Below, piece after piece: positions 17,602 to 39,394 of a stretch of 64,000 nt of DNA (its first letter is position 1; every line of letters begins with the position of its first letter). This DNA is from a virus. Under the pieces are notes generated by a model. The model was not told where the DNA came from. It ran no database searches and worked only from the letters and a program-made list of their open reading frames with translations. The translations under genes and the position numbers were made by a program. The stretch lies in the IMG/VR virus record IMGVR_UViG_3300045988_173544; one strand, written 5' to 3'.

Positions 17602-18188
17602 AATTTCACTGTCTCCTATTTGTTATTATTTGTTACTTACATATTTATTATAACACATGAAAGAGAGTTTGTCAACCCTCTTTCACTTCTTTTCGTAACA
17701 TTTCTTAATAATTATAAGGACTATAACACAAGATAAAGGGAATGTGAGAAATGAGGGAATAAGTACAGGAGCTTATATTATACTAAGGAGAGTATATACC
17801 TTTAGAGCATAAGTAAGAGGTAAGAGGTAAGTATAGAAAATAGGCATTGATAGGGTTATTTTCTAGTAGTGGAAATGTATATCTATTTCCACTGCGAAAA
17901 ATTAGAGGTAAAATTTCCCTGAAATCCAGTCGTAGAGCGGGTTTCGGGGATTTTAGTTTTGGGGGATTTTTACTACTACCTAGAGGTAGTAATAGGTGAG
18001 GGATAAGGGATAAGGGATAGTGGATAAGGGATAGTTGAGTAGTTGAGTAGTTGTTCAACTAATATACTTTGTGAGGTATAGGTGAAAGTGAATAATGCTT
18101 GTGAGGTATATGTATATGTATATGTATATGTTTGTGAGGTATAGGTAGGGTGAAGAATGCCTTTGAGTAATACCTGATGAGCATAGGT

Positions 18189-18360
18189 GAGTGTGGAGAA
18201 AAAAAGATAGACAGGGGTAGGAATATGGGGATATGGGGATATGAGAAAAAGTGAGTGTGGAGAAAAAAAGATAGACAGGGGTAGGAATATGGGGATATGA
18301 GAGTGTGGAGAAAAAAAGATAGACAGGGGTAGGAATATGGGGATATGAGAAAAAGTGAGT
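18189..18360. repeat. three tandem ~58-bp direct repeats (gagtgtggagaaaaaaagatagacaggggtaggaatatggggatatg...)
   Basis: read directly. Confidence 0.85.
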
Positions 18361-18408
18361 ATGGGTGAGATAGAGTTGAGGGTCGTTTAGACACAGACCC
18401 CCACTTCT

Positions 18409-18500
18409 CCCCAGATTTTTTATCTCCCTTACACTTCCCATGCTTCCTATACTCCCCAGATTTTTTATCTCCCTTACACTTCCCATGCTTCCTATACTCC
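18409..18500. repeat. two tandem ~46-bp direct repeats (ccccagattttttatctcccttacacttcccatgcttcctatact)
   Basis: read directly. Confidence 0.85.
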
Positions 18501-18734
18501 CCATACTTCCCGTGCTTCCTATATTCCCTATATTCCCTATACTACACCTACATACACCTCATACCTTTTAAGCATACCTAATCCCTTATTATACATTTCA
18601 GGTATATTTCCTTTTCCTCTCCCTTTATTTTCCTCTGTAAAATACCGGAGGAAAAATTTTCTGTTTAGATTTTCTAGCAGGATATATCCTGCTAGAAACT
18701 TTTTAAGAACCGCTAAAATTTCTTTACAAAAAGA

Positions 18735-18763
18735 TTGACAAATTCACCGGCATGTGGTAAAAT
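18735..18763 (+). promoter_or_regulatory. + strand promoter of the TTGACAA...TGnTAAAATAGTATC family (copy 1 of 7)
   Basis: TTGACA 17 nt TAAAAT with TG extension; copies at 18816, 20893, 22063, 23503, 23963, 25136. Confidence 0.6.
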
Positions 18764-19243
18764 AGTATCTTATTCTCATATATTAAGTAATGTTACAATA
18801 AGGGGGAAAGGGTTGACAAACAGGGGAGTATGTGGTAAAATAGTATCCTTTCTCCTAGTTGCAATCATTCTTCCAATCATTATTTTTCAATTCCGCATAT
18901 ACATAGGTGCGGGCTCAATCCCCGATAAAGGTACATCTCCAATCAAAGCAATCATTCTATACCTTCCCATACATATATGGAGAGAAGGTATAAATCATTA
19001 AGTATATGTACAATCAAATCAATCGAGGTATGCTTCTTAGGTATGCCTTGTAAGTATATATATACAATCAAATCAATCATTCATTCATGAGGGGTAGGGT
19101 TGCTCAATCCTTTTAGAGTACGTGAAAATGCTCAAAAATTTTTCCGGAAATTTACAAAACTTTAATGTGGAAAGAATATGCTCAATCCCTGTAGTAGAGC
19201 GGGTTTCGGGCGGTTTCGGGGCTTGTATTTTCTTAATATCAAT

Positions 19244-19480
19244 TTATCCCTCAAGCCCACCCTTCTGTTCCTTACTTAATTCAATTAATCCTTTTGTTGC
19301 AACCTTTAAAAGATACAGGTAATAACTCATCTTATCATTCCCTATCTTCTTTTTATGCGCAAGTGCTTCCTCTAATAAGTTATTTATTATTACACTCAAC
19401 TTATCATCTTCTCCTAACATACCCTTTATCTCTTCAAGGATATTACTATCAATCGATAATGATACTGTTACTTTACTCAT
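19244..19480 (-). CDS. ribbon-helix-helix (CopG/Arc-like) transcriptional regulator
   Basis: N-terminal MSKVTVSLSIDSNILEEIK beta-strand/helix pattern; AGGAGA RBS. Confidence 0.5.
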   Translation of the reverse strand: MSKVTVSLSIDSNILEEIKGMLGEDDKLSVIINNLLEEALAHKKKIGNDKMSYYLYLLKVATKGLIELSKEQKGGLEG

Positions 19481-19496
19481 ACGTGTTTCTCCTATT

Positions 19497-19558
19497 CCTA
19501 ATAGTTTTCTCATGTTAGTTTTCTCATGTTAGTTTTCTCATGTTAGAAAACTATTAGG
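19497..19558. promoter_or_regulatory. operator-like element: 3 x 14-bp direct repeats (ttttctcatgttag) flanked by a perfect 14-bp inverted repeat (cctaatagttttct / agaaaactattagg)
   Basis: directly upstream of the RHH regulator start. Confidence 0.55.
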
Positions 19559-19564
19559 AATTAT

Positions 19565-20059
19565 TTAAAAAGGATTAATCAATCCTAACATTACAGTTTT
19601 GCTCAATTTCTCATCAGGGTCATAAGAAAATAGTATGCTTTCAATCATACTTATAACATCTTCCCCTATCCCCTCATACTCTCTGTCATCACCTTCAATA
19701 ATTCCGCCATTACTATCATATATAGTATGTATTAACGTCTTATTCCCTAACCTTACAATCACATCATAATTATCCGTCCTATAATCCGCCAAGGATACAT
19801 CTACTATATAATCCTTTGTACAATCATTTTTCTTATTATAAACAATCAATTTTATAACTGCTCTATCTAATATATCCCCCTCTTCTACTCTTTCATCTTC
19901 CCTATACTCCTGTAAAAGGAGTTTTGCTTCAAGTACAAGGTCATCTGTTACCCATGTTTTCAATCCCCCTGCTTCCAAAGTTCTTAAAACTGTTAAATCA
20001 TTCCCATTAATATTAAGTTTCTTTACTGTGCTTACTGCATAAGTATTTCTTACTGTCAT
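19565..20059 (-). CDS. hypothetical protein (164 aa)
   Basis: ORF; conserved UTR. Confidence 0.55.
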   Translation of the reverse strand: MTVRNTYAVSTVKKLNINGNDLTVLRTLEAGGLKTWVTDDLVLEAKLLLQEYREDERVEEGDILDRAVIKLIVYNKKNDCTKDYIVDVSLADYRTDNYDVIVRLGNKTLIHTIYDSNGGIIEGDDREYEGIGEDVISMIESILFSYDPDEKLSKTVMLGLINPF

Positions 20060-20139
20060 GTGTTCGTATCTCCCATATTACTATTTGTTACAATCAAATT
20101 AAATCATTATTATTAACGCACCAGAAAAGGTGAGGGTAA

Positions 20140-20811
20140 TTAATACCCCCACTCAATCAATAACTCTGACAGCTTTTGAAGTTCATCAGGAATTAAAACT
20201 CTGTTGAAATACTGTTGTGTTCTCTTACATTCCCTGTATGCTCTCTGTGCTTTTCTTAAGTCTTTAATTTCATACCCGAACATCTCGCAGAACTCTTGCA
20301 AATCTTCAACTTCATCTGCGCTTTCTTTATCCCTTAAAAAACATGCCAGTATTTCAACATCTGCTGAACGTGTGCCATTCACATAATTCCAGATACTGTC
20401 ATGAAATACTGCTTTATAGTCCACTCCGTTAATTCTTAAGCGTACATTATACTTATTATAATTGCCATGTTCTGTCGGTGTTACTGTGTCCTGCTCTACT
20501 TCCATTTCCTGAATAGGGAATAATTCTGTTAATATTTCCCACTGTTCGTTTTTATCTGTGTTTTCTGCATATTCAAGGAATTTCAAGCGGTCATTTAATA
20601 ATGCTACATTATCGCAACTGCTGTATCTAGGGCATTTTTCGCATTCATCAAGTAATGCTTCAAACTCTTCCCTTGTTCCGCCGTTAAATACTGCGTTGTT
20701 TAATCTGCTTGTGTCCTTGCCTTCTTCAATGTCGCAAGGTCTTAAAATTTCGTTGTTAGTGTTTGTCATGTTTCTGTTTCCTTTCGTTTTATCTATCAAC
20801 TTATCTATCAA
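20140..20811 (-). CDS. hypothetical Cys-containing protein (223 aa)
   Basis: ORF; promoter ~20855. Confidence 0.55.
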   Translation of the reverse strand: MIDKLIDKTKGNRNMTNTNNEILRPCDIEEGKDTSRLNNAVFNGGTREEFEALLDECEKCPRYSSCDNVALLNDRLKFLEYAENTDKNEQWEILTELFPIQEMEVEQDTVTPTEHGNYNKYNVRLRINGVDYKAVFHDSIWNYVNGTRSADVEILACFLRDKESADEVEDLQEFCEMFGYEIKDLRKAQRAYRECKRTQQYFNRVLIPDELQKLSELLIEWGY

Positions 20812-20926
20812 CTTATCATACCTTTATTATAACACATGAAAAAATTCTTGTCAACTGTTTGAAAGAATATTTTACAAAACTTAACAAAAGGGTTGACAAA
20901 TAAGCTGGCATGTGTTAAAATAGTAT

Positions 20927-20982
20927 CCCTCATATACTAGCAAGGGCATGGAGTTCTTATACTTCCCATGCCCTGCATTTAT
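20927..20982 (+). ncRNA. candidate ~56-nt sRNA: + strand promoter (20893-20920) followed at once by a GC hairpin plus T-tract
   Basis: promoter-to-terminator unit; hairpin agggcatgg...ccatgccct then gcatttatt. Confidence 0.4.
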
Positions 20983-21007
20983 TATTGATAGATTAGAAAG
21001 GAATTAT

Positions 21008-21493
21008 TTAATCTGCCTTTGTTAAGCCCTGCACTATGTCTATGGCTTGCAAGAATTTCATGCCTGCTTTTACTGCTTCCAGTTGCTCTTCTGATTGTAT
21101 AAGAGGGGTTTTTGTTCTGACAATTTCTTTACTTGTATCTGATAGGCTGTTAAATAGCTTTTCAAATGCCTTTACTTCTTCCTCAACTTGTCTTGCGCCG
21201 TCCTCTCTGCGCTGTACAATAAGTTTGTTGTAAAGCTCGTCTTTTACTTCTTTAGGTTCCTGTAACTTTTCAATAGCTTCTATTAACACTGTTTCATACT
21301 GGAAACATTCCCATGTTCTGTTATAGTAGCATGCTTTGCTTATAGGGTTTTCACCTTGTGGGAAATATTCATCACCTCTGAAACATACATGTCTAAAGCC
21401 GTAACTTGTATCTTGTCCGAAACATGTAAAGCTAAATTTTCTACCGTCTGCAATTGCTTCAAATACTTTTCTTCCGTAAAATTTTCTTGCCAT
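21008..21493 (-). CDS. hypothetical protein (161 aa)
   Basis: ORF; promoter ~21560. Confidence 0.55.
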   Translation of the reverse strand: MARKFYGRKVFEAIADGRKFSFTCFGQDTSYGFRHVCFRGDEYFPQGENPISKACYYNRTWECFQYETVLIEAIEKLQEPKEVKDELYNKLIVQRREDGARQVEEEVKAFEKLFNSLSDTSKEIVRTKTPLIQSEEQLEAVKAGMKFLQAIDIVQGLTKAD

Positions 21494-21589
21494 AATTAAG
21501 TTATCCTTTCGTTTTATCTATCTACATTTTTATTATAACACATTAAAATATTTTTGTCAACTGTTTAATGTTATATCCTGTTACATTTC

Positions 21590-21919
21590 TTAACATGCCA
21601 TGCTGTTGCAAATATCTTCATATTCTTCAAGCTCTGCTTCTGTTAAATGCTGGCATGCATAGTCGTTAATAGCTTCCTTAAGCTGTTCCCCTGTTACTGC
21701 TAGCCCTGTATCTCTACCATTAAGGTTTTCGATATGAACATTTTCTGCTTCTCGCATAAGCTCTGCCAAATTACTTGTTATATCTTCTTTAAGCTCTTTG
21801 AGTGCTTCGTCATATTCTTGCTCTGTAACATAGGAGTAACTTTTCAAAAAGTCTTTTTTATTAAGTATTAAAAAGTCGCCTGCTTTTTCTAAGTCTGTCA
21901 AAATTTCTGTATCTGCCAT
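21590..21919 (-). CDS. hypothetical acidic protein (109 aa)
   Basis: ORF; promoter ~21980. Confidence 0.55.
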   Translation of the reverse strand: MADTEILTDLEKAGDFLILNKKDFLKSYSYVTEQEYDEALKELKEDITSNLAELMREAENVHIENLNGRDTGLAVTGEQLKEAINDYACQHLTEAELEEYEDICNSMAC

Positions 21920-22062
21920 GGTTCTGTTCCTTTCGTTTTATCTATCAACATTCTTATTATAACACATTAAAAAATTTTTGTCAACTCTTTTAAATCAATT
22001 TCTGTAACATATCTTAACATTCAATCAAATCAATCATTTGTAAAGTTATGTAACAAAAGGGT

Positions 22063-22090
22063 TGACAAATAAATAATCATGTGATAAAAT
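22063..22090 (+). promoter_or_regulatory. + strand promoter (family copy) driving a candidate ~160-nt ncRNA (22100-22260) paralogous to 24000-24180
   Basis: TTGACA/TAAAAT; shared downstream motifs gaaaattttcaggc, ttttgggggtg, ggggcttgc. Confidence 0.5.
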
Positions 22091-22232
22091 AGTATCTGTA
22101 AAGCATGCTCAATCCTTCTGAAAAATTTTCAGGCATGCTCAAAATCTTTACCCCTATAAATACCCCTCTAATACCTATAAATAGGGGCTTTGGGGGTGAA
22201 ATGGGGCTTGCCAATACCCAACCACTCCAAAC

Positions 22233-22268
22233 AAATAAAAGCCCTGTAATCAAATCAATTACAAGGCT
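22233..22268 (-). terminator. rho-independent terminator of gene 22304..22669
   Basis: 10-bp hairpin followed by TTTTATTT on - strand. Confidence 0.6.
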
Positions 22269-22303
22269 GTGATAACAAAAGAAAGTTTCATGATAAATCT
22301 TTT

Positions 22304-22669
22304 TTAATAAGCATAATTACCATCAGTTATTATTTCTGCTTCTTCATAAGGTACTGTAATGTCTGTTACTTCAAAGATAATCTGATTATCTTTAAGAAAA
22401 AGAGTTACGCTTTTGTACAAGGTTAAATCATTCCCATCAAAATACATTTCTATAAATTCAAGCTCATCAGGGTTACAAACTCCGGTATAGCTATCAATTA
22501 CCCTGCTTGCTTCGTCTGCTGTATTCTCGACACAGTAACCTATTACATGCCGGCATGCATTCTCCAATGCTTCAACGTCTTTAATGCTCTTGTCCTGCAT
22601 GAATTGTACAAACTCATTATACAATCCCTGCGCCTGTTTATATACTTCTTTTGTAACATAATCAATCAT
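22304..22669 (-). CDS. hypothetical protein (121 aa)
   Basis: ORF. Confidence 0.55.
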   Translation of the reverse strand: MIDYVTKEVYKQAQGLYNEFVQFMQDKSIKDVEALENACRHVIGYCVENTADEASRVIDSYTGVCNPDELEFIEMYFDGNDLTLYKSVTLFLKDNQIIFEVTDITVPYEEAEIITDGNYAY

Positions 22670-22681
22670 TTTTAATAATCC

Positions 22682-23008
22682 TTATATTGCGTATTTCTTA
22701 ACGTTGTGCGCATACTGCTTTAAAGTTTCATAAGCCTTTTTTACTTCCGACTTTTTAAAGTCGTATGTTTCAGGGCATAACTTGTAAATTATTTCATTTA
22801 CAATCAAATGACTTGATACCTTAGTCAATCCATGCTCTTTAATCAATTGCAAACCAAACTTACTAAAAGGCTGTTGCGCATATACAATCAAGAATGCTTT
22901 AAAAATCTTTTTGAACTGTCCTTGGTACGTGTCCAGCTTGTTTACAAATTCTTTTGCCAGTGCTTTTTGTTGCTCGCATGCTAATCCGTCTTTTATAATA
23001 TTATTCAT
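22682..23008 (-). CDS. hypothetical protein (108 aa)
   Basis: ORF. Confidence 0.55.
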   Translation of the reverse strand: MNNIIKDGLACEQQKALAKEFVNKLDTYQGQFKKIFKAFLIVYAQQPFSKFGLQLIKEHGLTKVSSHLIVNEIIYKLCPETYDFKKSEVKKAYETLKQYAHNVKKYAI

Positions 23009-23085
23009 TGTCTTATTATCCTTACTTATGTTACTACTATGAGAGAAAAGAGGCGGTGCGGTTTACACCGCCTGACAATTCCACA

Positions 23086-23385
23086 TTATATTAATTCGCT
23101 GTTGCTTCTTACCGTATCCAGATATATGGACTCTTGATTAAGTAATTGCTTTAATTCAAGGGTATATTGTCTTATTTGCTTCTTACTACCGCCGTATTTA
23201 ATAACCTCAAGGCTTGGTTCTATAACCTGTGTACCGTTAGCCATGGTATATATTCCTTTGTTACCTTGCTTAATAGTACAGTCGCCGATAACTTTTGAAA
23301 TAATTTGCTCAGCCTTGGCGGTGCTGATTTCTTGTTTTAATGTATCCTTGTCAAATAATCCGATGTTTAAAGTGTGTTTTAACAT
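23086..23385 (-). CDS. hypothetical protein (99 aa)
   Basis: ORF; conserved UTR; promoter ~23445. Confidence 0.55.
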   Translation of the reverse strand: MLKHTLNIGLFDKDTLKQEISTAKAEQIISKVIGDCTIKQGNKGIYTMANGTQVIEPSLEVIKYGGSKKQIRQYTLELKQLLNQESIYLDTVRSNSELI

Positions 23386-23619
23386 GTTCGTATCTCCTTT
23401 TGTTATCTACTCTTTTATTATAACACATGAAAAAATTTTTGTCAACTGTTTAGGATAATATTTTGTAACAAAACTTTACATTAATATTTCTTAACAAACA
23501 CTTGACAAGTCATGGATTTTGTGGTAAAATAGTATCCCTTTAATATTGGTAATAAAAAAGCATGCCTGAATATCTGGCATGCTTATGGGGTTGAGAGTGA
23601 GATTTTACTAGAAAACTTT

Positions 23620-23850
23620 TTATATGTATTGATTAACAAATGGGGCTATGTATTGCTGTGTTAACTCTTCATTAGTTAAGCCCTGTATTTTATCGCTGTT
23701 TACAAGGTTATTAATAAACTCTTTAACTTTATCTATTCCGCCGACATTCTCAACAAATATGTTAAAATCGCAATAGCATTCACCTATTACATAGGATTTT
23801 AAAGTTAAAATTACTTGCTGTTTTAAGTCTGTTGTGTTTAATGCTGTCAT
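23620..23850 (-). CDS. hypothetical protein (76 aa)
   Basis: ORF; promoter ~23915; terminator hairpin 23558-23590. Confidence 0.55.
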   Translation of the reverse strand: MTALNTTDLKQQVILTLKSYVIGECYCDFNIFVENVGGIDKVKEFINNLVNSDKIQGLTNEELTQQYIAPFVNQYI

Positions 23851-23962
23851 GTCTGTTCTTCCTTTCGTTTATTTATCAACATTCTTATTATAACACATGA
23901 AAATATTTTTGTCAACTATTTATAAGTAAAATCAATCAATTGTTACAAAACTTAACATAAGG

Positions 23963-23991
23963 TTGACAAGCTCAATCAATTGTGTTAAAAT
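23963..23991 (+). promoter_or_regulatory. + strand promoter (family copy) driving a candidate ncRNA 24000-24180
   Basis: TTGACA 17 nt TAAAAT, TG extension. Confidence 0.5.
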
Positions 23992-24175
23992 AGTATCCGA
24001 AAAATAGGCATGAAAATTTTCAGGCTACCCTGAAACTTCCCCCTTTAAAAATAAGGTTGAAACCCAGTAATAACGGGGGTTTTGGGGGTGTTCGGGGCTT
24101 GCGGGAATTAAATATAATGGGGTGGGTATAAATACCCAATTAATAATAAGGGCGGAATAACCGCCCCTGAAACTT

Positions 24176-24583
24176 TTATATAAATTCTGTCAAACATCTA
24201 TCCCCTAAAACATCCTCCAGCATACTTATATCGCCTAATTCAAGCGTTTGTTTGCGCTTTAAATCTGCTTTATCTTTCATAAGGTCTATTTCAAGCTCTT
24301 TGTCTGTTGCGGGCGCTATTCTCTCAACATCAGACTTTGAATAATTTACATATTCTCTAAAGTCTTTCAACTCTCTTTTATATCTTGCAAGCCTGTTGCG
24401 GTATATGTCAAGCTCTCTTGTATATTCCCTGACTGTTTTATCAAACTTCACACGGCGCACAACTGATTGGCTAGCATAGAAATTCAATGCGCTTTCTACG
24501 TTCTTAATATCCTGCTCCGTGTCCTGTATACCCCTTTTTATATAGGATATAGTTTTGTTGAATTCTTCCTTTGCTGTTGTCAT
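24176..24583 (-). CDS. hypothetical coiled-coil protein (135 aa)
   Basis: ORF; UTR carries a GCCC-GACA-GGGC hairpin; promoter ~24665. Confidence 0.55.
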   Translation of the reverse strand: MTTAKEEFNKTISYIKRGIQDTEQDIKNVESALNFYASQSVVRRVKFDKTVREYTRELDIYRNRLARYKRELKDFREYVNYSKSDVERIAPATDKELEIDLMKDKADLKRKQTLELGDISMLEDVLGDRCLTEFI

Positions 24584-24732
24584 TGTCTTTCGTCCTTTCT
24601 ACCCTGTTGAGGGCTGTTTATCTATCTACATCATCTATATTTACATGAAATTGCATGTTTGTCAACTAATTTATTAAGAAATATTAAGGGCTGATTTTAG
24701 ATTTTTAAGCGCATGGTAATGCGCTTAACTTT

Positions 24733-24960
24733 TTAAAAGTTGCTTGGTGCAAGCCCTATAATTAAGACTAGGAATAACCACATACCAACTGCCCCGATAA
24801 ATCCTAAAAATAGGCGGTTTAATATTTCTTTATTATCCATAACCCTGTAAACGTCCTTAGGTACTCTGTATGCTTCACCGTTCTTAATAACTGTTACATA
24901 CTTAGTATATAAGTATTCTCTGAAAATTTCTCTCTTTAATTCATTCAATAATGCTTTCAT
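24733..24960 (-). CDS. hypothetical small membrane protein (C-terminal TM)
   Basis: ORF; same UTR hairpin family. Confidence 0.5.
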   Translation of the reverse strand: MKALLNELKREIFREYLYTKYVTVIKNGEAYRVPKDVYRVMDNKEILNRLFLGFIGAVGMWLFLVLIIGLAPSNF

Positions 24961-25338
24961 TGTCTTTCGTCCTTTCTGCCCTGTCGGGCTGTTTATCTAT
25001 CAACATACTTATTATATGTTAGAATTGCATGTTTGTCAACAAATTATTTTAAAAATCATTTTAAAAATCATACTTTAGTATTAGATTAAATTTTTAAGCG
25101 CATGGTAATGCGCTTAATTTTTCTTAATAAACCACTTGACAATTAATAAATATGTGATAAAATAGTATCGGGCATGAGAGCATGCCTTAATCATTCAATC
25201 AAAATACTTATAAATGATATTATGTTGTAACATTTACAGCCCTCTAGCAAGCCCATAAATCGATTTTTCTATATCAGATGATTAATCTATCCAACAGATA
25301 CAAAAAAGCCCCTTAACGGGGCTTCTATCAATCGGATT

Positions 25339-26312: not shown

Positions 26313-26598
26313 TGTCGTATCTCCTTTTGCTTACAATACTATTTTAAACGATACAACATGAAAAGTCAAGCCCATGAGAGCATGTTTTTGTAACAAATTT
26401 TGTAAAGATTTTTGTAAAGATATTAAGGTAGGCATGGTTATATTTGAATAAGTAAAGGGCTGAAAACCAATGATAGAGGGTGTTTTAGATTAGAATATGT
26501 GCCCTCGCTAGACACCTCACAGAAATTTTCCACTTTCCCCAAAACTTCAATGGTCCCATAACCCTTACTACACCTGCATTTTAGCCCCACCTTATCTT

Positions 26599-26643
26599 CA
26601 TATACACACACATATACACACATATACACACATATACACACAT
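26599..26643. repeat. (catatacaca)n 10-bp microsatellite, about 4.5 units
   Basis: read directly. Confidence 0.85.
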
Positions 26644-26887
26644 CCTACCCCAACCTCATTTTCATATACTCCTCTTACACAGGTGTCTGCATATACATAT
26701 CTCCATGACCTCTAGTGACCCATACAGAGTTACTATTCTCACACATCCCACCTCAATATGACTCATACACATTCACAAGGGGGTACCCTAATCTCTCATA
26801 CCCTTATTTCTCAAAACCCTCAAAATTTTTTCCGGGAATTCTGAAAACTTTAATGGTCCCATAACCCTTACTATTCTTGTGTTATAG

Positions 26888-26968
26888 CTAAAATAGGTAA
26901 AATGCAAGAATACTTAACTCAACTATAAGTAACACAGCAAGCATTAATATTGCGTCAAATAAATTCAT
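26888..26968 (-). CDS. 26-aa hydrophobic peptide MNLFDAILMLAVLLIVELSILAFYLF
   Basis: tiny ORF with GGTAGGGAAG RBS; tandem paralog of the next; lies in a ~95-bp tandem duplication. Confidence 0.35.
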   Translation of the reverse strand: MNLFDAILMLAVLLIVELSILAFYLF

Positions 26969-26984
26969 CTTCCCTACCTTACTA

Positions 26985-27068
26985 TTATAGCGAGGATAGA
27001 TAAAAATACAAGAATAAGTAAAATACGGTTAACATTAACACAGTAAGCATTAACAACATATTATTCAT
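26985..27068 (-). CDS. 27-aa hydrophobic peptide MNNMLLMLTVLMLTVFYLFLYFYLSSL
   Basis: tiny ORF with GAGAAG RBS; membrane-helix-like; possible toxin or holin-like peptide. Confidence 0.35.
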   Translation of the reverse strand: MNNMLLMLTVLMLTVFYLFLYFYLSSL

Positions 27069-27099
27069 ATCTTCTCAATCGATAAACCTTTCTCTTTTA

Positions 27100-27335
27100 A
27101 GACAGAAACCGGAAGAGTTATTTAGGCTTCCCCCGGTTTCCTTATTAAATAAATGAGATTATGTTAGGCGTGCACTAGGTCTATTCCACCCTTGCTCTTA
27201 TATTAGAGAAGGGACTTGTAAACTACTAGACTAATCGCCCCGTAAGTTCGGGAGTGTATCCCCCTACCTTTACCTCTTAATATTTTATAAGGTCTGGTTA
27301 AGATTTACCTTATTTGTAGGATTGTTTATTTTACC
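27100..27335 (-). ncRNA. candidate tracrRNA-like ncRNA: own consensus promoter, ~170-nt 5' part, 15-nt anti-repeat (27151-27165) complementary to the CRISPR repeat, then hairpin 27105-27140
   Basis: promoter 27342..27370; no ORF; on the - strand aacataatctcattt is the exact reverse complement partner of the repeat core. Confidence 0.45.
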
Positions 27336-27341
27336 GTACTT

Positions 27342-27370
27342 ATTATAGCATAAACTTTTCTGTTTGTCAA
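27342..27370 (-). promoter_or_regulatory. consensus sigma70 promoter directly downstream of the TnpB-like gene
   Basis: TTGACA (27365-27370) 17 nt TATAAT (27342-27347). Confidence 0.7.
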
Positions 27371-27384
27371 CTATTTCATTCAAA

Positions 27385-28767
27385 TTATTTCTCTGCATAA
27401 TTCTTAAGGTTAATAGCAGCATTTTCATCCCTATCCATTACCATCCCGCACTTAGGGCACTTAAATACTTCATAACCTTTTTTCATCTCTTTATTCTTAT
27501 ATCCACAGTTACTACATATTTGTGAGCTTGCAAAGAACCTATCTGCTTTTATTACATTAACACCATTTCTTTCAGCTTTATACTTCAGCCAATCAAGCCA
27601 TGTACCCATACTTGTTTTCTGTATACCTTTAGCTACCTTCTTATTTTTCTTCATATTATTTATAGCAATATTTTCTACTACAATACTTTCAGGAGCTATT
27701 CTCTTTAATAAGTGAGCTACAGACTGCTTTCTATTATCTTCCTTAATATTCTCTATTTTTATCTGTGTACTTCTTAAATATCTTTCCAGTCTTCTTAACT
27801 TATTACTCTTTCTTAATCTCTTATTACCATAAGGAGTTTCTATATAATCATTATTAAGTCTTGCATGCAGCTGTAGTGTACTTATCTTTCTCTGTAATCT
27901 CTTACACTTTCTTTCATACTTTTTAACTTTCTCAGAAGTTGCAGGATTTAATACTTTAGTACCATCTGAAAGAGTTGCCAGTTTTCTACACCCTACATCT
28001 ACTCCCAATACTCCTTCTAAGTTTTGTAAGTTCAAATCATTATCTCTATATTCTGTTTTTACTGAAACAAAGAAATCTATACCATCTGTAGAAACTGTAA
28101 TATAATCTGCTAAAGTACCTTCTAATCTTCTATCCCAACCTTTTATCTTCATACCACCTTTTATTTTAGGAAGATATAACTTTCCATCTTTTATTCTTCC
28201 TACAGTAGTATAAGAACCTTTTGAAGACCATTTATGTGGTTTAGGAAATCCTTTAGCGTCAGCAGGGAATTTTAAGCTAGCTTCTTCCCCCTTCTTACTT
28301 CTCAGTTTTCTCTGCCTTTCATAGAAATCTGCTAAAATTTCTGAAGCACCATAATTACCTTTAGCGTCTTTCTTAAAATACTTCTCATTCCAAAACTTCT
28401 TATTAGCTGTATATAAAGCTCCTATAGAAGCCGGACTTACAACACAATCCAAAGCTTTTGCGTCACATTCTCTTAACCATGCATTTTCCGGAAGTTTCTT
28501 AAACTGTGTAAACTCCTTACTTATTCTTCCAAAATTCTTAATATTCTTTACTTTAGAGCTTGCTATATCATCAATATTTATATCATAATCTTCTTCATAT
28601 AATCCTTGCAATTCTCTACAGCCCCAATTATACGTAAATCTTGCAGCTGTAATATTTTTCTGCATTGCTGCTTTTTGCGCTTTATTTACGTGGATTTCTC
28701 TCTTAAACCCAATTTTACCTACACTCTCCTCTTTATCCTCTACAGGAGCTAACAACATTTCTTCCAT
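27385..28767 (-). CDS. tnpB: TnpB/Cas12f-like RuvC nuclease (IS605 OrfB family), ~460 aa
   Basis: RuvC-I GVDVG; C-terminal CSNCG...CPKCG zinc finger and RuvC-III DRDENAAINL; N-terminal FTYNWGCRELQ block; AGAGAGG RBS; dedicated promoter 28946..28974. Confidence 0.8.
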   Translation of the reverse strand: MEEMLLAPVEDKEESVGKIGFKREIHVNKAQKAAMQKNITAARFTYNWGCRELQGLYEEDYDINIDDIASSKVKNIKNFGRISKEFTQFKKLPENAWLRECDAKALDCVVSPASIGALYTANKKFWNEKYFKKDAKGNYGASEILADFYERQRKLRSKKGEEASLKFPADAKGFPKPHKWSSKGSYTTVGRIKDGKLYLPKIKGGMKIKGWDRRLEGTLADYITVSTDGIDFFVSVKTEYRDNDLNLQNLEGVLGVDVGCRKLATLSDGTKVLNPATSEKVKKYERKCKRLQRKISTLQLHARLNNDYIETPYGNKRLRKSNKLRRLERYLRSTQIKIENIKEDNRKQSVAHLLKRIAPESIVVENIAINNMKKNKKVAKGIQKTSMGTWLDWLKYKAERNGVNVIKADRFFASSQICSNCGYKNKEMKKGYEVFKCPKCGMVMDRDENAAINLKNYAEK

Positions 28768-28945
28768 ATTACCTCTCTTAATAATTTTCAGATGTAACAA
28801 AGGGAGAAGAGTCAGAGGTAAAAATTCTCCAAGGTAAAAATATTGTAAAAACCCTTAGAGAAGAAAAATAACATTTAACACATAATAAAGTCCCAACTCT
28901 TCCCCTGTGTTACACATCTAAAATCGTTCCTATCTTTATGTATCT

Positions 28946-34386: not shown

Positions 34387-34461
34387 TGGTTGCGGGGGAG
34401 GGAGTTGAACCCACTACTTCTGGGTTATGAGCCCAGTGTGCAACCGGTACACTTCCCCGCT
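34387..34461 (-). tRNA. tRNA-Met (CAT), initiator-like: GGG/CCC anticodon stem, CUCAUAA loop, mismatched 1:72, CCA encoded
   Basis: manual cloverleaf fold. Confidence 0.7.
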
Positions 34462-34466
34462 ATATA

Positions 34467-34811
34467 CTAATTTAAGAATTCTTTAAAATCATACGACTTG
34501 TACATTTTTCGTTTAGAAGGTCTTGTCGGAGCTTCGATAACTCGTAAATAGTTCTGCTGAACCTTATAACAATAAGATGAATAAAGTTTCGGATTATCGT
34601 TTTTAAAACGTGTTTGGTCAAAGTACGTTCTAGGTTGTGTAATGTGATGAACTCCGTAATTCCCTACGGTCACTACATCACCGGGTTTTATATGTTCTTT
34701 TAAACGCCCTTGCAGTTCTTCGATTTCCCTCTGTAAGATACGTTCCTGTTCTTTGAGGTTTACGTAATGTTGTATGTCAATCTCAAAAGCGGTGCGTTCT
34801 CTTTCGTCCAT
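34467..34811 (-). CDS. hypothetical protein (115 aa; start at MDERERT)
   Basis: ORF trimmed so it does not overlap tRNA-Ser. Confidence 0.5.
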   Translation of the reverse strand: MDERERTAFEIDIQHYVNLKEQERILQREIEELQGRLKEHIKPGDVVTVGNYGVHHITQPRTYFDQTRFKNDNPKLYSSYCYKVQQNYLRVIEAPTRPSKRKMYKSYDFKEFLN

Positions 34812-34822
34812 AATAACCTTCC

Positions 34823-34911
34823 TGGAGGAGAGCCTGAGAGTTGAACTCAAGACACATTGTGCCCGATGGGTTTAGCAAACCCTCCTAAGGACCGCCCTAG
34901 TGGTACTCTCC
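34823..34911 (-). tRNA. tRNA-Ser (GCT), class II, CCA encoded
   Basis: acceptor GGAGAGT/GCTCTCC, anticodon loop TTGCTAA, long variable arm, T-loop TTCAACT. Confidence 0.7.
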
Positions 34912-35227
34912 TTACAGAAAAGTATATCATAGTTTTTATAAAAAGTCAACTAACTTGGTAATATTTCCCTAGTTTCCTAGAGGTAGGTATTTACTGGGTT
35001 ACTTACGCTTGTCGAACTGCCCAACCTACGGTCCCATCGCTCTATGTGTTTTGTACAAGATTTTCACTTGGAGCCAACTGCATGCAGGGGTTCTTTTAAT
35101 TCACATACTACCGGCAATCGATAGAAGGGTATGACCTCCACGGGGTGACAAAATCCCGCTTTCTCATACTATGCAGACTATTACCAAGTCAGTTAACCAA
35201 TTCTTTAAATAGATTAGTTGACCTTAA

Positions 35228-35303
35228 TTGGAAGGTCGTGTGGGATTTGCACCCACGCATAATGGTTTTGCAGACCACCTCGTTAACTACTTCGACAACG
35301 ACC
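35228..35303 (-). tRNA. tRNA-Cys (GCA), U73 discriminator, CCA encoded, T-loop TGCAAAT (G55)
   Basis: perfect 7-bp acceptor AGGTCGT/ACGACCT; anticodon stem GTGGT/ACCAT. Confidence 0.65.
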
Positions 35304-35583
35304 TAAGAGTCTCAGCATATTCCCGATTTTCTTTTCTTAATCTCTCAATAGCTAACTTCTGTAATAACTCAGCTTGTTCTCGTCTTAGTTCTTGATATTC
35401 TTGACAAGTTGCTTTATCTGACGAAATACAAGTATAACTTGAGGTTGTACCCGAACCCGTCTTAAATAAGATGGGAACAATCATGATAAGTAGAAATATC
35501 AATGCTCCAATAGGGAGTAACCATATTAAATCTACGCAACTATAATTAGGTGATTTTGTTCCATCTTTATTATCAATACTCAT
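35287..35583 (-). CDS. hypothetical small membrane protein
   Basis: ORF; hydrophobic core. Confidence 0.45.
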   Translation of the reverse strand: MSIDNKDGTKSPNYSCVDLIWLLPIGALIFLLIMIVPILFKTGSGTTSSYTCISSDKATCQEYQELRREQAELLQKLAIERLRKENREYAETLRSLSK

Positions 35584-36134
35584 TGTACTACCTCCTTTAT
35601 ATCTCCCTTAAAATCACGAGTCCAATTTTCCCACGGAATGTGACCTTCGGGAATTCTTTGTTCGGGTAGGGAAGCTTCGTTTAATTTACCTAATACGTAT
35701 TTCTTGTTATGGTCAACAGCCCGACATTCACAATTCCCTTCGTATAATTCAAGGAATGATGTTATTTTTCCACATCTTGGGCAAGTGAATACTTCCCCTG
35801 TTACTGTTAATGCGCAGCACTCTAGTAAGAAATCATTTAAAGTTTCAGGATACTTAAATCCCTCGAAAGACACCACCCGCCCGTTTGATAACCTTCTAAG
35901 AATAGTTCCGTACTCGTATGATAAATAATCCTCTTTCGAAGGGCGTGTATAAAGTCCTAAATCATCCCTAGACTCCATAAGTTTCTTTTCCCAAGGAGTA
36001 TGAACTTTAGAAAAAATAGCGTCTATGAGGTTTCTCTCGGATTGATTAAATAGACTACGTCTTTGTTGTCTTAATGTAAATAACTTATGCTCTGTTAAGT
36101 CAATCCGAGGTTGATTTGGAACTTGAACTACCAT
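35580..36134 (-). CDS. hypothetical protein with CPRCG...CEC zinc motif
   Basis: ORF. Confidence 0.55.
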   Translation of the reverse strand: MVVQVPNQPRIDLTEHKLFTLRQQRRSLFNQSERNLIDAIFSKVHTPWEKKLMESRDDLGLYTRPSKEDYLSYEYGTILRRLSNGRVVSFEGFKYPETLNDFLLECCALTVTGEVFTCPRCGKITSFLELYEGNCECRAVDHNKKYVLGKLNEASLPEQRIPEGHIPWENWTRDFKGDIKEVVQ

Positions 36135-36143
36135 TACACCCTC

Positions 36144-36917
36144 CTATATGAAAGGTTTTGCTATAGCAGTTCGCACATTTTTAATGAAACTTTTAAAGAA
36201 CCCTTGTTTCCTCGGTTTCAAAACATACTTGCTTTTCTCATCTTCAATAAGATTATTGATATATGTTCGTACTTCCTCTTCTGTTGCTTGCGGGAGTGAT
36301 ACTTCTTTTGCTACATCATCTTTACCCATTTGACCAAGTTCTTGTACAAGTTTTGTCAGAGTTAAGTCGCAGAATTCATCTTCCCAGTCAGCGATGAAAT
36401 AAAATCTGTCGTGAATATTCCAGATATTATTAGTCTTTTCTTCAAAAGCTCCAAAAACTATAGGGTCTCGCTGTCTTTCTTCTACTGCAATCTGTCGTTC
36501 TGTTTCTCCAGTATAATCAGTAAATACAACATAGAACTGGTCGAAGATTTTTAAAGACTTAAGTTCAGAAATTTTTTGAACTACTTCATCTGGAATTATT
36601 CTAGGGTATTTAGATAATTCAATAATTTTAACAACTCTACCCTTAACATTGTTCAAGTAAAAAGTAATATCTTCAGATAGGACATAAGTTGAAATCCCGT
36701 GTTTAAGAAGTTCTCTTTCTTTGGTTATAACACCATAAGTGAATGCAAGTCTTTGTACAACTGCATTTTGACCTACTGCCATAGCCTTAGTTAACTCCTT
36801 CATAATAATATTCTTGAAGGAAGTAAGAAAATCGTCAGACATGTCTAACTTATGCTCTTTAACGAAGTTAAAATATTCTTGAGGGCTTAATTCCTGCTTA
36901 ATGTTCTCATTGTCCAT
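36144..36917 (-). CDS. hypothetical protein (257 aa)
   Basis: ORF; promoter ~36965. Confidence 0.55.
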   Translation of the reverse strand: MDNENIKQELSPQEYFNFVKEHKLDMSDDFLTSFKNIIMKELTKAMAVGQNAVVQRLAFTYGVITKERELLKHGISTYVLSEDITFYLNNVKGRVVKIIELSKYPRIIPDEVVQKISELKSLKIFDQFYVVFTDYTGETERQIAVEERQRDPIVFGAFEEKTNNIWNIHDRFYFIADWEDEFCDLTLTKLVQELGQMGKDDVAKEVSLPQATEEEVRTYINNLIEDEKSKYVLKPRKQGFFKSFIKNVRTAIAKPFI

Positions 36918-37066
36918 GCTTGTTCTCCTTTATGAGAGAATTATATCACAAGAAAGGCAATTTGTCAACTTTTATGTAATAATGGTCTGGATAGCCGGCT
37001 CCGCCCCGGCGACAGAGGTCCCCAAAGCCCCTATGTTACTAAGCTACACTATATCCAGATAATTAA

Positions 37067-37158
37067 TGGAGGAGAGAGTGGGATTTGAACCCACGGAGGC
37101 TTTTAGACCCCGACAGTTTTCAAGACTGCTCCAATAAGCCAGGCTCTGGCACCTCTCC
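37067..37158 (-). tRNA. tRNA-Ser (TGA), class II, CCA encoded
   Basis: manual fold. Confidence 0.75.
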
Positions 37159-37165
37159 ATAAAAA

Positions 37166-37239
37166 TTCCCCCGCTACGACTCGAACGTAGGAAATATCGG
37201 AACCAAAATCCGACGCCTTACCAGCTTGGCTACAGGGGA
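37166..37239 (-). tRNA. tRNA-Gln (TTG), U1:A72
   Basis: manual fold. Confidence 0.7.
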
Positions 37240-37248
37240 GTATAAAAA

Positions 37249-37320
37249 TACCCGGTGCTGGATTTGAACCAACGACCTCCACTTTGTAAGAGTGGCATTC
37301 TACCGCTGAATTAACCGGGC
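37249..37320 (-). tRNA. tRNA-Val (TAC)
   Basis: manual fold. Confidence 0.7.
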
Positions 37321-37325
37321 TTGAA

Positions 37326-37400
37326 TGGAGCGAGTAGAGGGAGTCGAACCCTCGCCGTCTGTTTGGAAGACAGAAATCATAACCGTTAGACCACACTCGC
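37326..37400 (-). tRNA. tRNA-Gly (TCC), CCA encoded
   Basis: manual fold; anticodon loop CTTCCAA. Confidence 0.75.
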
Positions 37401-37405
37401 AAAAT

Positions 37406-37479
37406 CACCCTCGGCAGGACTCAAACCTGCGACGTGAGACTTAGAAGGTCCCTGTTCTATTCATCTGAACTACGAGGGT
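37406..37479 (-). tRNA. tRNA-Arg (TCT), A1:U72
   Basis: manual fold. Confidence 0.65.
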
Positions 37480-37484
37480 TTATT

Positions 37485-37557
37485 AGCCCCCTAGAGGATT
37501 TGAACCCCTGACATCCACGTCCGTAGCGTGGTGTTCTTTCCGCTGAACTAAGGAGGC
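37485..37557 (-). tRNA. tRNA-Arg (ACG)
   Basis: manual fold. Confidence 0.7.
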
Positions 37558-37755
37558 TTAGTCTGAGTAATCCCTTAACTGTTCTAAAAGAACACGTTTA
37601 CCATCAGGTTTTATAAGTACGCAACCTTGAATAGGTTTGTAATTACAAGCATACCCCAGTGCGTCTGCCTTAGCATGGCATTCCCAATTACTCATAAATA
37701 CGCCAAGTCCTAAAACCAAGAGGACTGTTATTACAATCAAATTAAACTCTGCCAT
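37558..37755 (-). CDS. small membrane protein (65 aa)
   Basis: ORF with TM helix. Confidence 0.45.
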   Translation of the reverse strand: MAEFNLIVITVLLVLGLGVFMSNWECHAKADALGYACNYKPIQGCVLIKPDGKRVLLEQLRDYSD

Positions 37756-37763
37756 AATTTACC

Positions 37764-38057
37764 TCATTTATCTTCCTGAGGTGGAAATATCCAATCGTAC
37801 ACTGTATTAACTATTTTTAAAGGTAGAAATAAGAACCCTAAAATTAGTGCAAAAGGCTGCGCAAAATTTAAGAATTCTTCCGGACTCATTCCAGTGAGTA
37901 AATAAACTTCGTGGAATAAATCCTCGTTTTTCTCTACATATTCATCTATGTTGTTGAGCTTCCTTTTCAGAAGACACCAACAAATAATCCCTGAAATTAT
38001 GTAATAGTATAGAAAATACATTAACTGAGTTCCCACAGTAGATAATTCAATACCCAT
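37764..38057 (-). CDS. small membrane protein (97 aa, 2 TM)
   Basis: ORF; promoter ~38085. Confidence 0.5.
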   Translation of the reverse strand: MGIELSTVGTQLMYFLYYYIISGIICWCLLKRKLNNIDEYVEKNEDLFHEVYLLTGMSPEEFLNFAQPFALILGFLFLPLKIVNTVYDWIFPPQEDK

Positions 38058-38106
38058 AGCTCTATGTTAGCATATTTTTGAAGATTTGTCAACTTTTTAG
38101 AAATAA

Positions 38107-38182
38107 TGCCCAAGACTGGAGTCGAACCAGCAAATGTCGCAGGGTCTAAACCTACCGCCTTTACCAATTTGGCAACTCGGGC
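38107..38182 (-). tRNA. tRNA with anticodon TAG (decodes CUA, Leu) but a class-I-like 7-nt variable region
   Basis: manual fold; canonical acceptor, D and T arms. Confidence 0.55.
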
Positions 38183-38188
38183 TTTTAT

Positions 38189-38273
38189 TAGGCATGACTG
38201 GAGTCGAACCAGCATTGTTTCTAATGTGATGGATTTTAAGTCCATTGCGTTTCACCAATTTCGCCACATGCCC
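38189..38273 (-). tRNA. tRNA-Leu (TAA), class II
   Basis: manual fold; long variable arm. Confidence 0.75.
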
Positions 38274-38461
38274 TTAAATATCATACAATAGGATTACTTG
38301 AGTACCTATATCTCTCTTCCCAGGTATATGTGCTTACCTAGGGTAGTTTTAAGAGTGTTTTCTTCTGCCCATACTGAAATCTTACCAACTACAAATCTAT
38401 TTTCCAGTAGCAACGGATATTTATGCAGACAAGTTATTCGTTAAACTATGTATGATAATGG

Positions 38462-38534
38462 TGAGTGCAGAAAGGTTTGAACTTTCACCTTGTATCTTAA
38501 AAGGATACTGCTCTACCAATTGAGCTATACACTC
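38462..38534 (-). tRNA. tRNA-Lys (TTT)
   Basis: manual fold. Confidence 0.7.
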
Positions 38535-38541
38535 ATTTTAA

Positions 38542-38618
38542 TGGTGGCTCCGGTTAGATTTGAACTAACGACGCTAGCCTCTTCAGGGCTACGCTCTACC
38601 CGACTGAGCTACAGAGCC
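38542..38618 (-). tRNA. tRNA-Phe (GAA), CCA encoded
   Basis: manual fold. Confidence 0.75.
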
Positions 38619-38939
38619 TCATAGACAACTTTTACAAGCATTTCCACCGCCGTGTTTCACGCACTCCGCATACGCATTTTGTTTTAAAATATCTTTAAAA
38701 CGGTCATAATCTTTATAACAATCATTACGATTACTGTAATAAAGACGTGAAATATCAGTACCGTATAACCTAATAAACATAGGGTCAAAAACCCCGGAAT
38801 TACCGCAATAACAAGCTGCCCCAACAATATTAGAAGTTTTAACAACTGTTATACCATCGTCATGTGCTTCAAATATAGTACTTTGCGCTAATACAGGGAC
38901 TGTATATAAAAATAACATAAGTATTAAAAATTTCTTCAT
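38619..38939 (-). CDS. secreted Cys-rich protein with signal peptide (106 aa)
   Basis: ORF; MKKFLILMLFLYTVPVLA signal-like N-terminus. Confidence 0.5.
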   Translation of the reverse strand: MKKFLILMLFLYTVPVLAQSTIFEAHDDGITVVKTSNIVGAACYCGNSGVFDPMFIRLYGTDISRLYYSNRNDCYKDYDRFKDILKQNAYAECVKHGGGNACKSCL

Positions 38940-38959
38940 TATGTAATCCTCTTTAAATA

Positions 38960-39031
38960 CGCAGGTTGCATGAATTGAACATGCGACTCGTAGTTTTGGA
39001 GACTAGAATTTTACCGCTAAACTAAACCTGC
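38960..39031 (-). tRNA. tRNA-Trp (CCA), with a C:C mismatch at 27:43
   Basis: manual fold; perfect acceptor GCAGGTT/AACCTGC and T-stem GCATG/CATGC. Confidence 0.55.
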
Positions 39032-39270: not shown

Positions 39271-39285
39271 TGTCTTCCTTGTCCT

Positions 39286-39362
39286 TGGGGTGACGGGAGG
39301 GGTTTGAACCCTCAACCGCCGGAACCACAATCCGGAGCTCTAGCCAATTGAGCTACCGCCAC
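39286..39362 (-). tRNA. tRNA-His (GTG), C73, CCA encoded, no G-1 encoded
   Basis: manual fold. Confidence 0.7.
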
Positions 39363-39394
39363 AGCTTTTATATAACCTTAGTGTAAATCCACAT

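Follow-up and report, generated by a model that had tools for sequence, protein, structure and literature searches.

Lambda OOP RNA and P22 sar RNA are short promoter-to-terminator antisense RNAs of temperate phages. The usual picture of a phage early region is a row of small genes with a strong promoter before each. In hyperplastic regions of T4-like phages, strong sigma-70 promoters with stem-loops, the PeSLs (promoter-early stem-loops), are described as mediating modular shuffling (Arbiol et al. 2010, PMC2839356; Comeau et al. 2014, PMC4122927). We analysed a stretch of 64,000 nucleotides (nt) of virus DNA (IMG/VR record IMGVR_UViG_3300045988_173544, hereafter the window), in which we distinguished a plus-strand promoter class named Q (TTGACA, 16-17 nt, TGTGnTAAAAT, AGTATC) from a TATAAT class named P. 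Like PeSLs, the locus holds repeated small cassettes with a consensus sigma-70 promoter, an A/T-rich upstream region and, in part of the units, a stem-loop, which lie densely in a hyperplastic region of small ORFans and are crossover points for cassette insertion, deletion and replacement between close relatives; the minus-strand TATAAT promoters with their terminators closely fit the PeSL description. PeSLs, however, precede an open reading frame (ORF), ending in a Shine-Dalgarno (SD) sequence and a start codon. Q promoters do not, are antisense in three quarters of cases and form a sequence class of their own (TAAAAT + AGTATC, pyrimidine start) beside the coding promoters, in a phage that is not T4-like. 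As with OOP and sar, a host-type promoter points against the main direction of transcription and would yield a short, terminated non-coding RNA overlapping the end or leader of a convergent message; OOP and sar are each one unique RNA that overlaps a defined target, whereas Q comprises about 12 units that share the promoter and not the transcribed sequence, most of them overlapping only a terminator hairpin and some being sense-oriented. We judge it somewhat better than an even bet that this phage lineage has in Q a promoter class dedicated to non-coding units, which the host polymerase reads early.

The window, with a G+C content of ~35%, belongs to a phage contig of ~214 kb, a 213,670-bp scaffold in the ENA metagenome assembly ERZ28659773. 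A search of the GenBank phage collection gave no nucleotide match to it. Three same-strain copies retrieved by exact-protein look-up were uninformative for comparison; the useful relatives were found through homologs of two island proteins, which also retrieved several short contigs. These relatives are L007, a partial contig, and L011, L014, L015 and L017, which hold complete islands and come from 220-225-kb contigs. Together with the window they make up the six genomes referred to below, all from related ~220-kb gut phages with 80-96% identity in syntenic blocks. A protein search of IMG/VR with the 223-aa island protein gave nothing, and one with the neighbouring Band_7 protein gave one distant contig, without the island.

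Within 18735-25169 the plus strand carries seven exact copies of TTGACAA-N-TGTGnTAAAATAGTATC. The pattern TTGACAA-N(10-20)-TAAAATAGTATC finds all seven (starts in Table 1), against a mean chance count of 0.00 in 100 dinucleotide shuffles, so that the seven plus-strand promoters of the original prediction stand, at coordinates shifted by 0-3 nt. The 12-mer TAAAATAGTATC has no exact copy elsewhere in the window; its nearest variant, with one mismatch, is TAAAATAGTATT at 26346-26335 on the minus strand. Each site matches the consensus at 11/12 positions and carries the TG extension, all seven combining TTGACA, a 16-17 nt spacer, TGTG and TAAAAT, and they are the sole plus-strand consensus promoters in the 64 kb. 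Relatives have 9-11 copies (10 on the partial contig), giving 59 copies in the six genomes, in 41 sequence variants, with Q orthologs at matching positions. TTGACA with a 16-17 nt spacer and TAAAAT is present in 59/59, as is AGTATC, and TGTGn precedes TAAAAT in nearly all, the exceptions being unit 8 (GGTGTAAAAT) and two variants with CG. An extended -10, with TG one base upstream of the hexamer, is common in Firmicutes. Information content is 1.8-2.0 bits in the -35, TGTG, -10 and AGTATC and falls to 0.1-0.7 bits in mid-spacer; the core has thus remained invariant while the spacers diverged, which argues for selection on the promoter and not for recent duplication. By sequence, the Q sites are near-perfect host-type (sigma-70/sigmaA) promoters with an extended -10.

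Q is confined to a ~9-kb island of variable early genes, in the relatives as in the window; in L011, L014, L015 and L017 every copy lies between TnpB and a 201-aa gene, and none was found around the iteron region (L114, L115). A scan of IMG/VR with the Q pattern returned two unrelated contigs with single copies each. After no Q copy, in the roughly 12 unit types examined, does an SD-ATG follow before the next promoter or hairpin. That Q points against the genes, as originally predicted, holds for the copies in the window, but 14 of the 59 copies in the six genomes are sense and 45 antisense, so this orientation is usual and not defining. The sense copies lie between a gene terminator and the next P promoter (three in L007, ~83-133 nt upstream of it), have a P-like spacer (AAAATATTTTCATGTGT) and diverge from P no earlier than the third base of the -10.

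P is the gene class. Besides Q the window holds 34 consensus promoters, every one of which lies on the minus strand between 1 and 48 kb, with TATAAT in 33/34 and AGTATC in 0/34; 33 have the form TTGACA-N17-TGTGTTATAAT and most precede a small gene with an SD, a string that has the usual look of an early region read by host polymerase. All 113 P copies in the six genomes are gene-sense and none has AGTATC. One intermediate between Q and P was seen, TTGACT-N17-TAAAATAGTATT-G at 26369 on the minus strand, which drives a 172-aa gene. In the unrelated IMG/VR contig L002, TAAAAT/TATAAT-AGTATC-A precedes SD-ATG genes, which makes AGTATC as such compatible with productive promoters. A near-palindrome, GTTAAGAAATGTAACA, recurs on the minus strand at 4709, 11669, 15404, 16238, 17709, 21594, 22018 and 23956, where several gene promoters have it ~20-35 nt before their -35; in relatives it also lies between Q and P. 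It looks like a candidate operator for a dimeric regulator, and its ends resemble both ends of the iteron described below.

Table 1. Positions of the promoters, elements and non-coding stretches of the island in the window
Feature	Position	Strand	Description
Long imperfect palindrome	18170..18640		~450 bp, centre near 18395; almost C-free arm of 48-nt tandem units, almost G-free arm of 45-nt units
Element D	17909..17975	+	shortened relative of A/B/C: AAAATTTCCCTGAAATCC...GCGGGTTTCGGGG...TTTTGGGGG
Q1	18735..18769	+	TTGACA-N17-TGTGGTAAAAT-AGTATC; in tandem, 78 nt upstream of Q2; orthologs in L011, L014, L015, L017
Q2	18813..18847	+	heads a ~390-nt ORF-less stretch whose end is element C
Non-coding stretch after Q1/Q2	18848..19235	+	several hairpins, motifs GCTCAATCC and CAATCAAATCAATC, element C
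Element C	19133-19225	+	ends in a G-U-rich hairpin plus ATTTTCTT at 19199-19234; plus-strand terminator-like site 19199-19226
P promoter (example)	20826..20854	-	drives a gene; other P -35s at 21560, 21984, 23445, 23915, 25039
Q4	20893..20927	+	divergent from minus-strand TATAAT promoter with -35 at 20854, 39 nt apart
Q4 unit	20928..20986	+	12-nt leader, hairpin 20940-20976, T-rich tail ATTTATTATT
Q6	22062..22096	+	78 nt from minus-strand promoter at 21984; leads into element A
Element A	22097..22272	+	core 22118-22210 ending GGGGCTTG; bidirectional hairpin 22240-22268
Q7	23502..23536	+	57 nt from minus-strand promoter at 23445; aimed at terminator hairpin 23558-23585 of 76-aa gene
Q8	23963..23997	+	48 nt from minus-strand promoter at 23915; leads into element B
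Element B	23998..24172	+	core 24011-24101 ending GGGGCTTG; hairpin 24148-24168
Q12	25136..25169	+	16-nt spacer; 97 nt from P promoter; preceded by bidirectional hairpin TTAAGCGCATGGTAATGCGCTTAA at 25094-25117
Stretch after Q12	25170..25338	+	GGGCATG/CATGCC hairpin 25170-25187; inverted iteron-like copy 25200-25237; terminator hairpin 25304-25326
Half-copies E1, E2	26515..26870 (~26515-26570, ~26813-26870)	+	first part AAATTTTCC...AAAACTTYAATGGTCCCATAACCC, in a G-poor non-coding block

Read in the sense of the genes, the recurring order is P, gene, terminator hairpin, an optional non-coding element and a Q pointing back, with the next P promoter 39-78 nt beyond. Under the reading of Q as a dedicated non-coding class, Q would be used solely for non-coding transcription units and solely in the island, each copy sitting in an intergenic joint beside the P promoter of a gene cassette, usually back to back at those distances and sometimes in tandem upstream, and host RNA polymerase would read the Q units early in infection together with P. 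The 20893 unit would give a ~50-nt hairpin RNA; the units that lead into C, A and B, three paralogous RNAs with a ~92-nt G-tract element ending GGGGCTTG; the other units, short transcripts into or through the terminator hairpins of convergent genes. We infer that Q transcripts exist and function at the RNA level, whether as small RNAs with a structure of their own or as transcripts that insulate the cassettes or act on them as cis-antisense.

The promoter-terminator unit that had been predicted at 20893, with a length of ~56 nt, is there as a self-contained hairpin-plus-T-tract unit of ~50 nt: its G+C-rich hairpin (minimum free energy (MFE) z = -4.05) is followed by AUUUAUUAUU on the plus strand, the minus side has no T-run, and the stem is kept in the six phages, with the loop shortened in L014 and L017. 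The T-rich tail is interrupted, leaving termination efficiency uncertain, and the loop exceeds 8 nt, hence the absence of this hairpin from the plus-strand list of a simple terminator scan. A hairpin comes within 5-25 nt of the start in units Q4, Q6, Q7, Q10, Q11 and Q12: Q7 and Q10 reach AGCATGCC...GGCATGCT after ~20 nt, Q11 meets TTAAGCGCAT..ATGCGCTTAA, a hairpin with its loop inverted in one of the strains, and the region behind Q12 opens with GGGCATG-AGAG-CATGCC. The copies at 23502 and 25136 run straight into hairpins, as had been proposed, and the hairpin in front of the former has its T-tract on the minus strand, which identifies it as the terminator of the convergent gene. The hairpins 24705-24728 and 25094-25117, flanked by an A-run and a T-run, are bidirectional, and two plus-strand terminator-like hairpins (18628-18655 and 18671-18698) stand just before Q1; together these would stop transcription both ways, an arrangement that is sensible only if the plus strand is transcribed.

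Behind the copies at 22062 and 23963 the original prediction had placed two paralogous ORF-less segments of ~160 nt. Both exist (elements A and B) and share the quoted motifs, but the paralogs are three, element C being the third, and the conserved unit, alignable without gaps in all three and ending at GGGGCTTG, measures ~92 nt. A does contain a 55-aa ORF (22105-22272), which lacks an SD and a counterpart in B. The element runs from an A/T palindrome (GAAAATTTTC type) through a CAAAAYTTTA-like motif, a variable 30 nt and a G-run cluster to GGGGCTTG; in L017, element B has a different joint, and homology to the window stops directly after GGGGCTTG, which defines the end of the element. The short motifs said to recur through 17.7-27 kb proved specific to the island and to its plus strand, which holds GCTCAATCC in 4/5, GGGGCTTG in 3/3, TTTGGGGG in 3/4 and CAATCAAATCAATC-like sequences in 5/8 of their matches (7/8 if those at 25.4-25.5 kb are counted).

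Across the six genomes the block 21950-22235, which spans a P promoter, Q6 and element A, varies at 0-5 columns per 40 nt, and at none in 22192-22231, whereas the flanking genes vary at 20-30; the gene to its left is replaced in relatives, and the protein to its right is 50% identical in L014 and L015. In an RNAalifold model of A, 7/8 variable core columns are unpaired and the eighth is an A-U to G-U change that pairs only in the plus-strand RNA; by our own estimate, with about half of the columns paired, such avoidance of stems has a chance probability of ~0.03. The fold and covariation check proposed along with the original prediction gave A and B a helix in common, formed by a C-run with UUUGGGGGUG. 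No double compensatory change was found within the A core across homologs, and in B one pair has gone from C-G to U-G and another is broken. Compensatory changes were found solely in the shared terminator hairpin. In the stretch with element C, the CUUY...RAAG hairpin has a U-A pair that becomes C-G in relatives by a double change. This stretch, 18848-19235, has an MFE z of -2.4 on the plus and +1.0 on the minus strand. Small RNAs from Q units are plausible, as had been predicted, from the plus-strand terminator and preserved stem at 20893 and from the conservation of element A.

A k-mer search for targets in trans gave no long complement besides a match between the Q12 unit and the iterons, described below, and a 15-nt identity of element A with a tRNA: 22181-22195 equals 15 nt of the tRNA-Pro anticodon arm (ATAGGGGCTTTGGGG). 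An anti-Shine-Dalgarno role of the pyrimidine-rich 5' ends was rejected, since duplexes with 19 ribosome-binding regions scored z = -0.57 against shuffles. Searches with TTTGGGGGTG-N3-4-GGGGCTTGC gave no homolog of the element: the one IMG/VR contig (L003, 60% G+C) has some flank resemblance, is unproven and compares with ~1 match expected by chance on our own estimate, and the 95 loci listed for GTDB belong to unrelated phyla and lie in coding sequence (the L037 locus apparently in a SpoVAD-like gene, by translation only) or in unrelated G-rich promoter regions. We also discarded a sigma-54 reading of GGGG...GGGGCTTGC, whose spacing does not fit, GGGGCTTGNNN as a -35 element, for which a usable -10 is absent at the proper distance, and an inverted repeat formed by the flanking non-coding blocks, which are alike in composition only.

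A number of points weigh against an RNA role of Q. The promoter itself is the only universally conserved part of the Q units, and in Q1 and the sense units 9 and 10 the next promoter follows with no hairpin in between. The relatives are so closely akin (92-96% identity in syntenic blocks of the closer comparisons) that support from covariation is thin, and the high conservation of A could be due in part to recent recombination. A common fold was sought for A, B and C and none was found, C folding differently; the plus-strand MFE z is -3.0 for A and a modest -1.5 for B. An Rfam scan, likewise proposed with the original prediction, gave no match in the island: with release 15, 17.5-27.5 kb had nothing at the gathering threshold and, in E-value mode, only sub-threshold, chance-like matches, the credible ones being the tRNAs and tmRNA outside the island. 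Finally, a purine start is expected ~7 nt downstream of the -10, and the seventh base after it is a purine in 81/84 P variants (context T-R-T) vs 5/41 Q variants; Q has C at the sixth base and a pyrimidine at the seventh in the other 36. Productive initiation at Q may therefore be weak, and the sites may be mainly polymerase-binding DNA.

This last thought leads to the alternative that survives best, although we consider it unlikely: Q would act mainly at the level of DNA, binding polymerase tightly and starting poorly, as a polymerase sink, a roadblock to read-through from the convergent gene or a divergent partner that supplies the neighbouring P promoter with negative supercoils, with RNA as a by-product. 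The invariant part of Q would suit such a role, as it extends from the -35 to the base before the start and includes the 6-nt discriminator, and so would the pyrimidine start, the units without a downstream hairpin and the closeness of P, which is 39-78 nt from the copies at 20893, 22062, 23502 and 23963, 97 nt from Q12 and, as noted, ~83-133 nt from three sense copies, Q1/Q2 having no P promoter nearby. Yet the segments after Q4, Q6, Q8 and Q2 are conserved, structured and plus-strand-specific, with the T-tail and the G-U pairs kept, both orientations occur, which misfits any single supercoiling or roadblock geometry, and another phage has ordinary genes driven by promoters with AGTATC and then A.

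Two promoter classes are kept strictly apart in this phage, one for genes and an equally conserved one for non-coding units only, the latter confined to the early region's most variable part. If Q is transcribed, the lineage would have some twelve non-coding RNAs made early, three of them forming a ~92-nt family without known relatives; if Q is not productively transcribed, promoters would be kept for polymerase binding alone. In both cases the island is a second example of promoter-based cassette shuffling, outside the T4-like phages, and it offers defined sequences for the effects of discriminator and start context on promoter output in gut Firmicutes-type hosts.

Shuffling itself is visible in the comparison. 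Gene content of the island varies among the six genomes, cassettes of 163, 168, 166, 200 and 358-380 aa being present or absent, and the recombination joints lie at promoters, as in PeSL hyperplastic regions; an SD and start codon downstream are found after minus-strand TATAAT promoters and after no Q. In L017 a chimeric promoter joins the upstream flank of Q7 to the spacer of Q8 and element B, which marks the promoters as crossover points. By analogy with the PeSLs of T4-like phages, we infer that the conserved promoter blocks would be homology patches for cassette shuffling. One could go further and take Q for a neutral by-product of this process, made of inverted or duplicated promoter halves at the joints. 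The variable gene content with joints at promoter sequences fits this, as do the sense copies, which look recombinant with their P-type spacer, and still we hold it improbable: all 59 copies keep TAAAAT and AGTATC though antisense spacers have diverged past recognition, no decayed copy was seen in the island, the nearest variant drives the 172-aa gene, and the class is retained at orthologous positions in six genomes.

Beyond the island lies a TnpB-family gene (27385-28800, minus strand; Pfam Cas12f1-like_TNB, 77.6 bits), which was compared with TnpB/omega-RNA systems and with TldR, the nuclease-dead repressors domesticated from TnpB of IS200/IS605 elements (Wiegand et al., PMC10705468). It has the helix-turn-helix, RuvC and zinc-ribbon TNB domains of TnpB (PMC10705468), the last at the C-terminus, and, in an alignment to ISDra2 TnpB (8bf8), D, E and D opposite D191, E278 and D361, so that unlike in TldR the RuvC residues are intact. 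As in TnpB/omega-RNA, a structured RNA gene lies directly 3', followed by a short stretch that matches sites with a constant 5' motif: in the 27095-28800 region, a consensus promoter of its own (-35 at 27370), a conserved structured stretch of ~160 nt (z = -2.25; predicted guide-RNA scaffold), AACATAATCTCATTTAT and a terminator hairpin. It differs in three ways: a separate consensus promoter and a terminator serve this RNA, the matched sites (the iterons and the Q12 site) belong to the genome of the phage itself, and the gene keeps its location in all four related genomes examined. Every strain has TGTTAC ~30 nt before the start codon of TnpB, a remnant expected from IS605-type insertion into an iteron-like site. 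In L014 (2052-4046) and L015 (2048-4042), an insertion that separates the guide-RNA region of TnpB from the 172-aa gene encodes a 664-aa protein with weak T5orf172 and faint HTH_11 matches, which the window lacks.

The first 15 nt of AACATAATCTCATTTAT are the core of seven 37-nt iterons (GTTACAACATAATCTCATYTCYAAGTATCTTCTAAC, plus strand, ~65 nt spacing) at 49809-50225, between genes for 152-aa and 348-aa proteins and ~0.8 kb from a RecD2-type helicase gene; relatives have 11-13 copies, and the array is a candidate replication origin or partition site. The inverted copy behind Q12 reads TGTTAC followed by AACATAATATCATTTAT on the minus strand. The Q units might be a control circuit for the adjacent TnpB, in which transcription from Q12 would cross a perfect match to TAM plus guide and the Q12 RNA, carrying an exact guide complement, would shield its site or sponge the guide RNA. 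The 17 nt after the scaffold recur under Q12 behind TGTTAC, at 16/17 positions in the window and 17/17 in L007, L011, L014 and L017, the last of which has two copies directly behind the start of Q12, and the RuvC D-E-D residues are kept. The match occurs, however, in only one of ~12 unit types, the other units having no sequence link to the guide. In L015, moreover, the guide 17-mer has become AACATATCCATCATTTAT, only this stretch being changed, while the Q12 copy has stayed as it was. We regard this circuit as quite improbable. A bolder version makes the island a hub of early non-coding RNAs tied to the resident TnpB, whose nuclease would be used on the phage's own genome and gated by Q transcripts, among them an anti-guide RNA, with A, B and C as a new regulatory RNA family. 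Besides the TAM-flanked guide match directly under Q12 and the 15-nt match to the iterons, it draws on L015, in which the 11 iterons have shifted in the same direction as the guide (GTTCC followed by ATCATAYCATCATTT, L115); to this version we give little credence. The nearest described cases are the nuclease-dead TldR repressors (PMC10705468). If it were true, self-recognition by TnpB would serve replication start, end formation or competition with related phages, and the interest of the island would rise if the TnpB link or an RNA function of the elements were borne out.

Least probable of all is that the plus-strand units prime or activate replication, or trigger recombination, through R-loops or G-quadruplex hybrids at the G-tracts and the C-free palindrome arm, on the models of ColE1 RNA II and mitochondrial conserved sequence block II (CSB II): clusters of at least three G-runs on the plus strand do fall in the island in 5/6 cases, the sole four-tract G-quadruplex-type motif of the window is in element B (24075-24105), the palindrome with its purine and pyrimidine arms adjoins Q1/Q2, and all these elements share one strand, but GC skew has no turn at the island, the obvious origin-like feature is elsewhere, in the iterons by the helicase at 49.8-50.2 kb, sense copies and hairpin-only units do not fit, and the island has no replication protein, its three PHROGs matches being to families of unknown function and two of them weak (E = 0.005-0.008).

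The palindrome (MFE z = -3.0 and -2.0) overlaps a plus-strand stretch, 17981-18636, in which C is almost lacking for ~410 nt and G for the ~240 nt directly after, and within which the same-strain contig L005 ends. GCATGC, an SphI-type palindrome, occurs 18 times in the window against 6.3 expected, 11/18 of them in the island; GCATG-type stems recur, and GCATGC is found in hairpin stems and within genes, for instance ACATGCCGGCATGCA at 22545. The 24-nt hairpin TTAAGCGCATGGTAATGCGCTTAA occurs twice in the window, at 24705-24728 and 25094-25117, and in relatives (L007, L011) follows a sense Q, its loop being flipped between strains, ATTACC vs GGTAAT. At 26895-27060 on the minus strand there are two tandem paralogous mini-ORFs of 24 and 26 codons, very hydrophobic (MLLMLTVLMLTVFYLFLYFYLSSL, MNLFDAILMLAVLLIVELSILAFYLF), the second with an SD and a TTGTAT-N16-TATAAT promoter, whose peptides resemble type I toxins or small membrane peptides. 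Outside the island, the window encodes the RecD2-type helicase, with a best identity of <=31%, to unannotated faecal phage fragments, a CCA-adding enzyme, the TnpB-family gene and, all on the minus strand (34387-44044), 23 tRNA genes and a tmRNA, whose tag reads ANNVIKADFGYRTAIAA.

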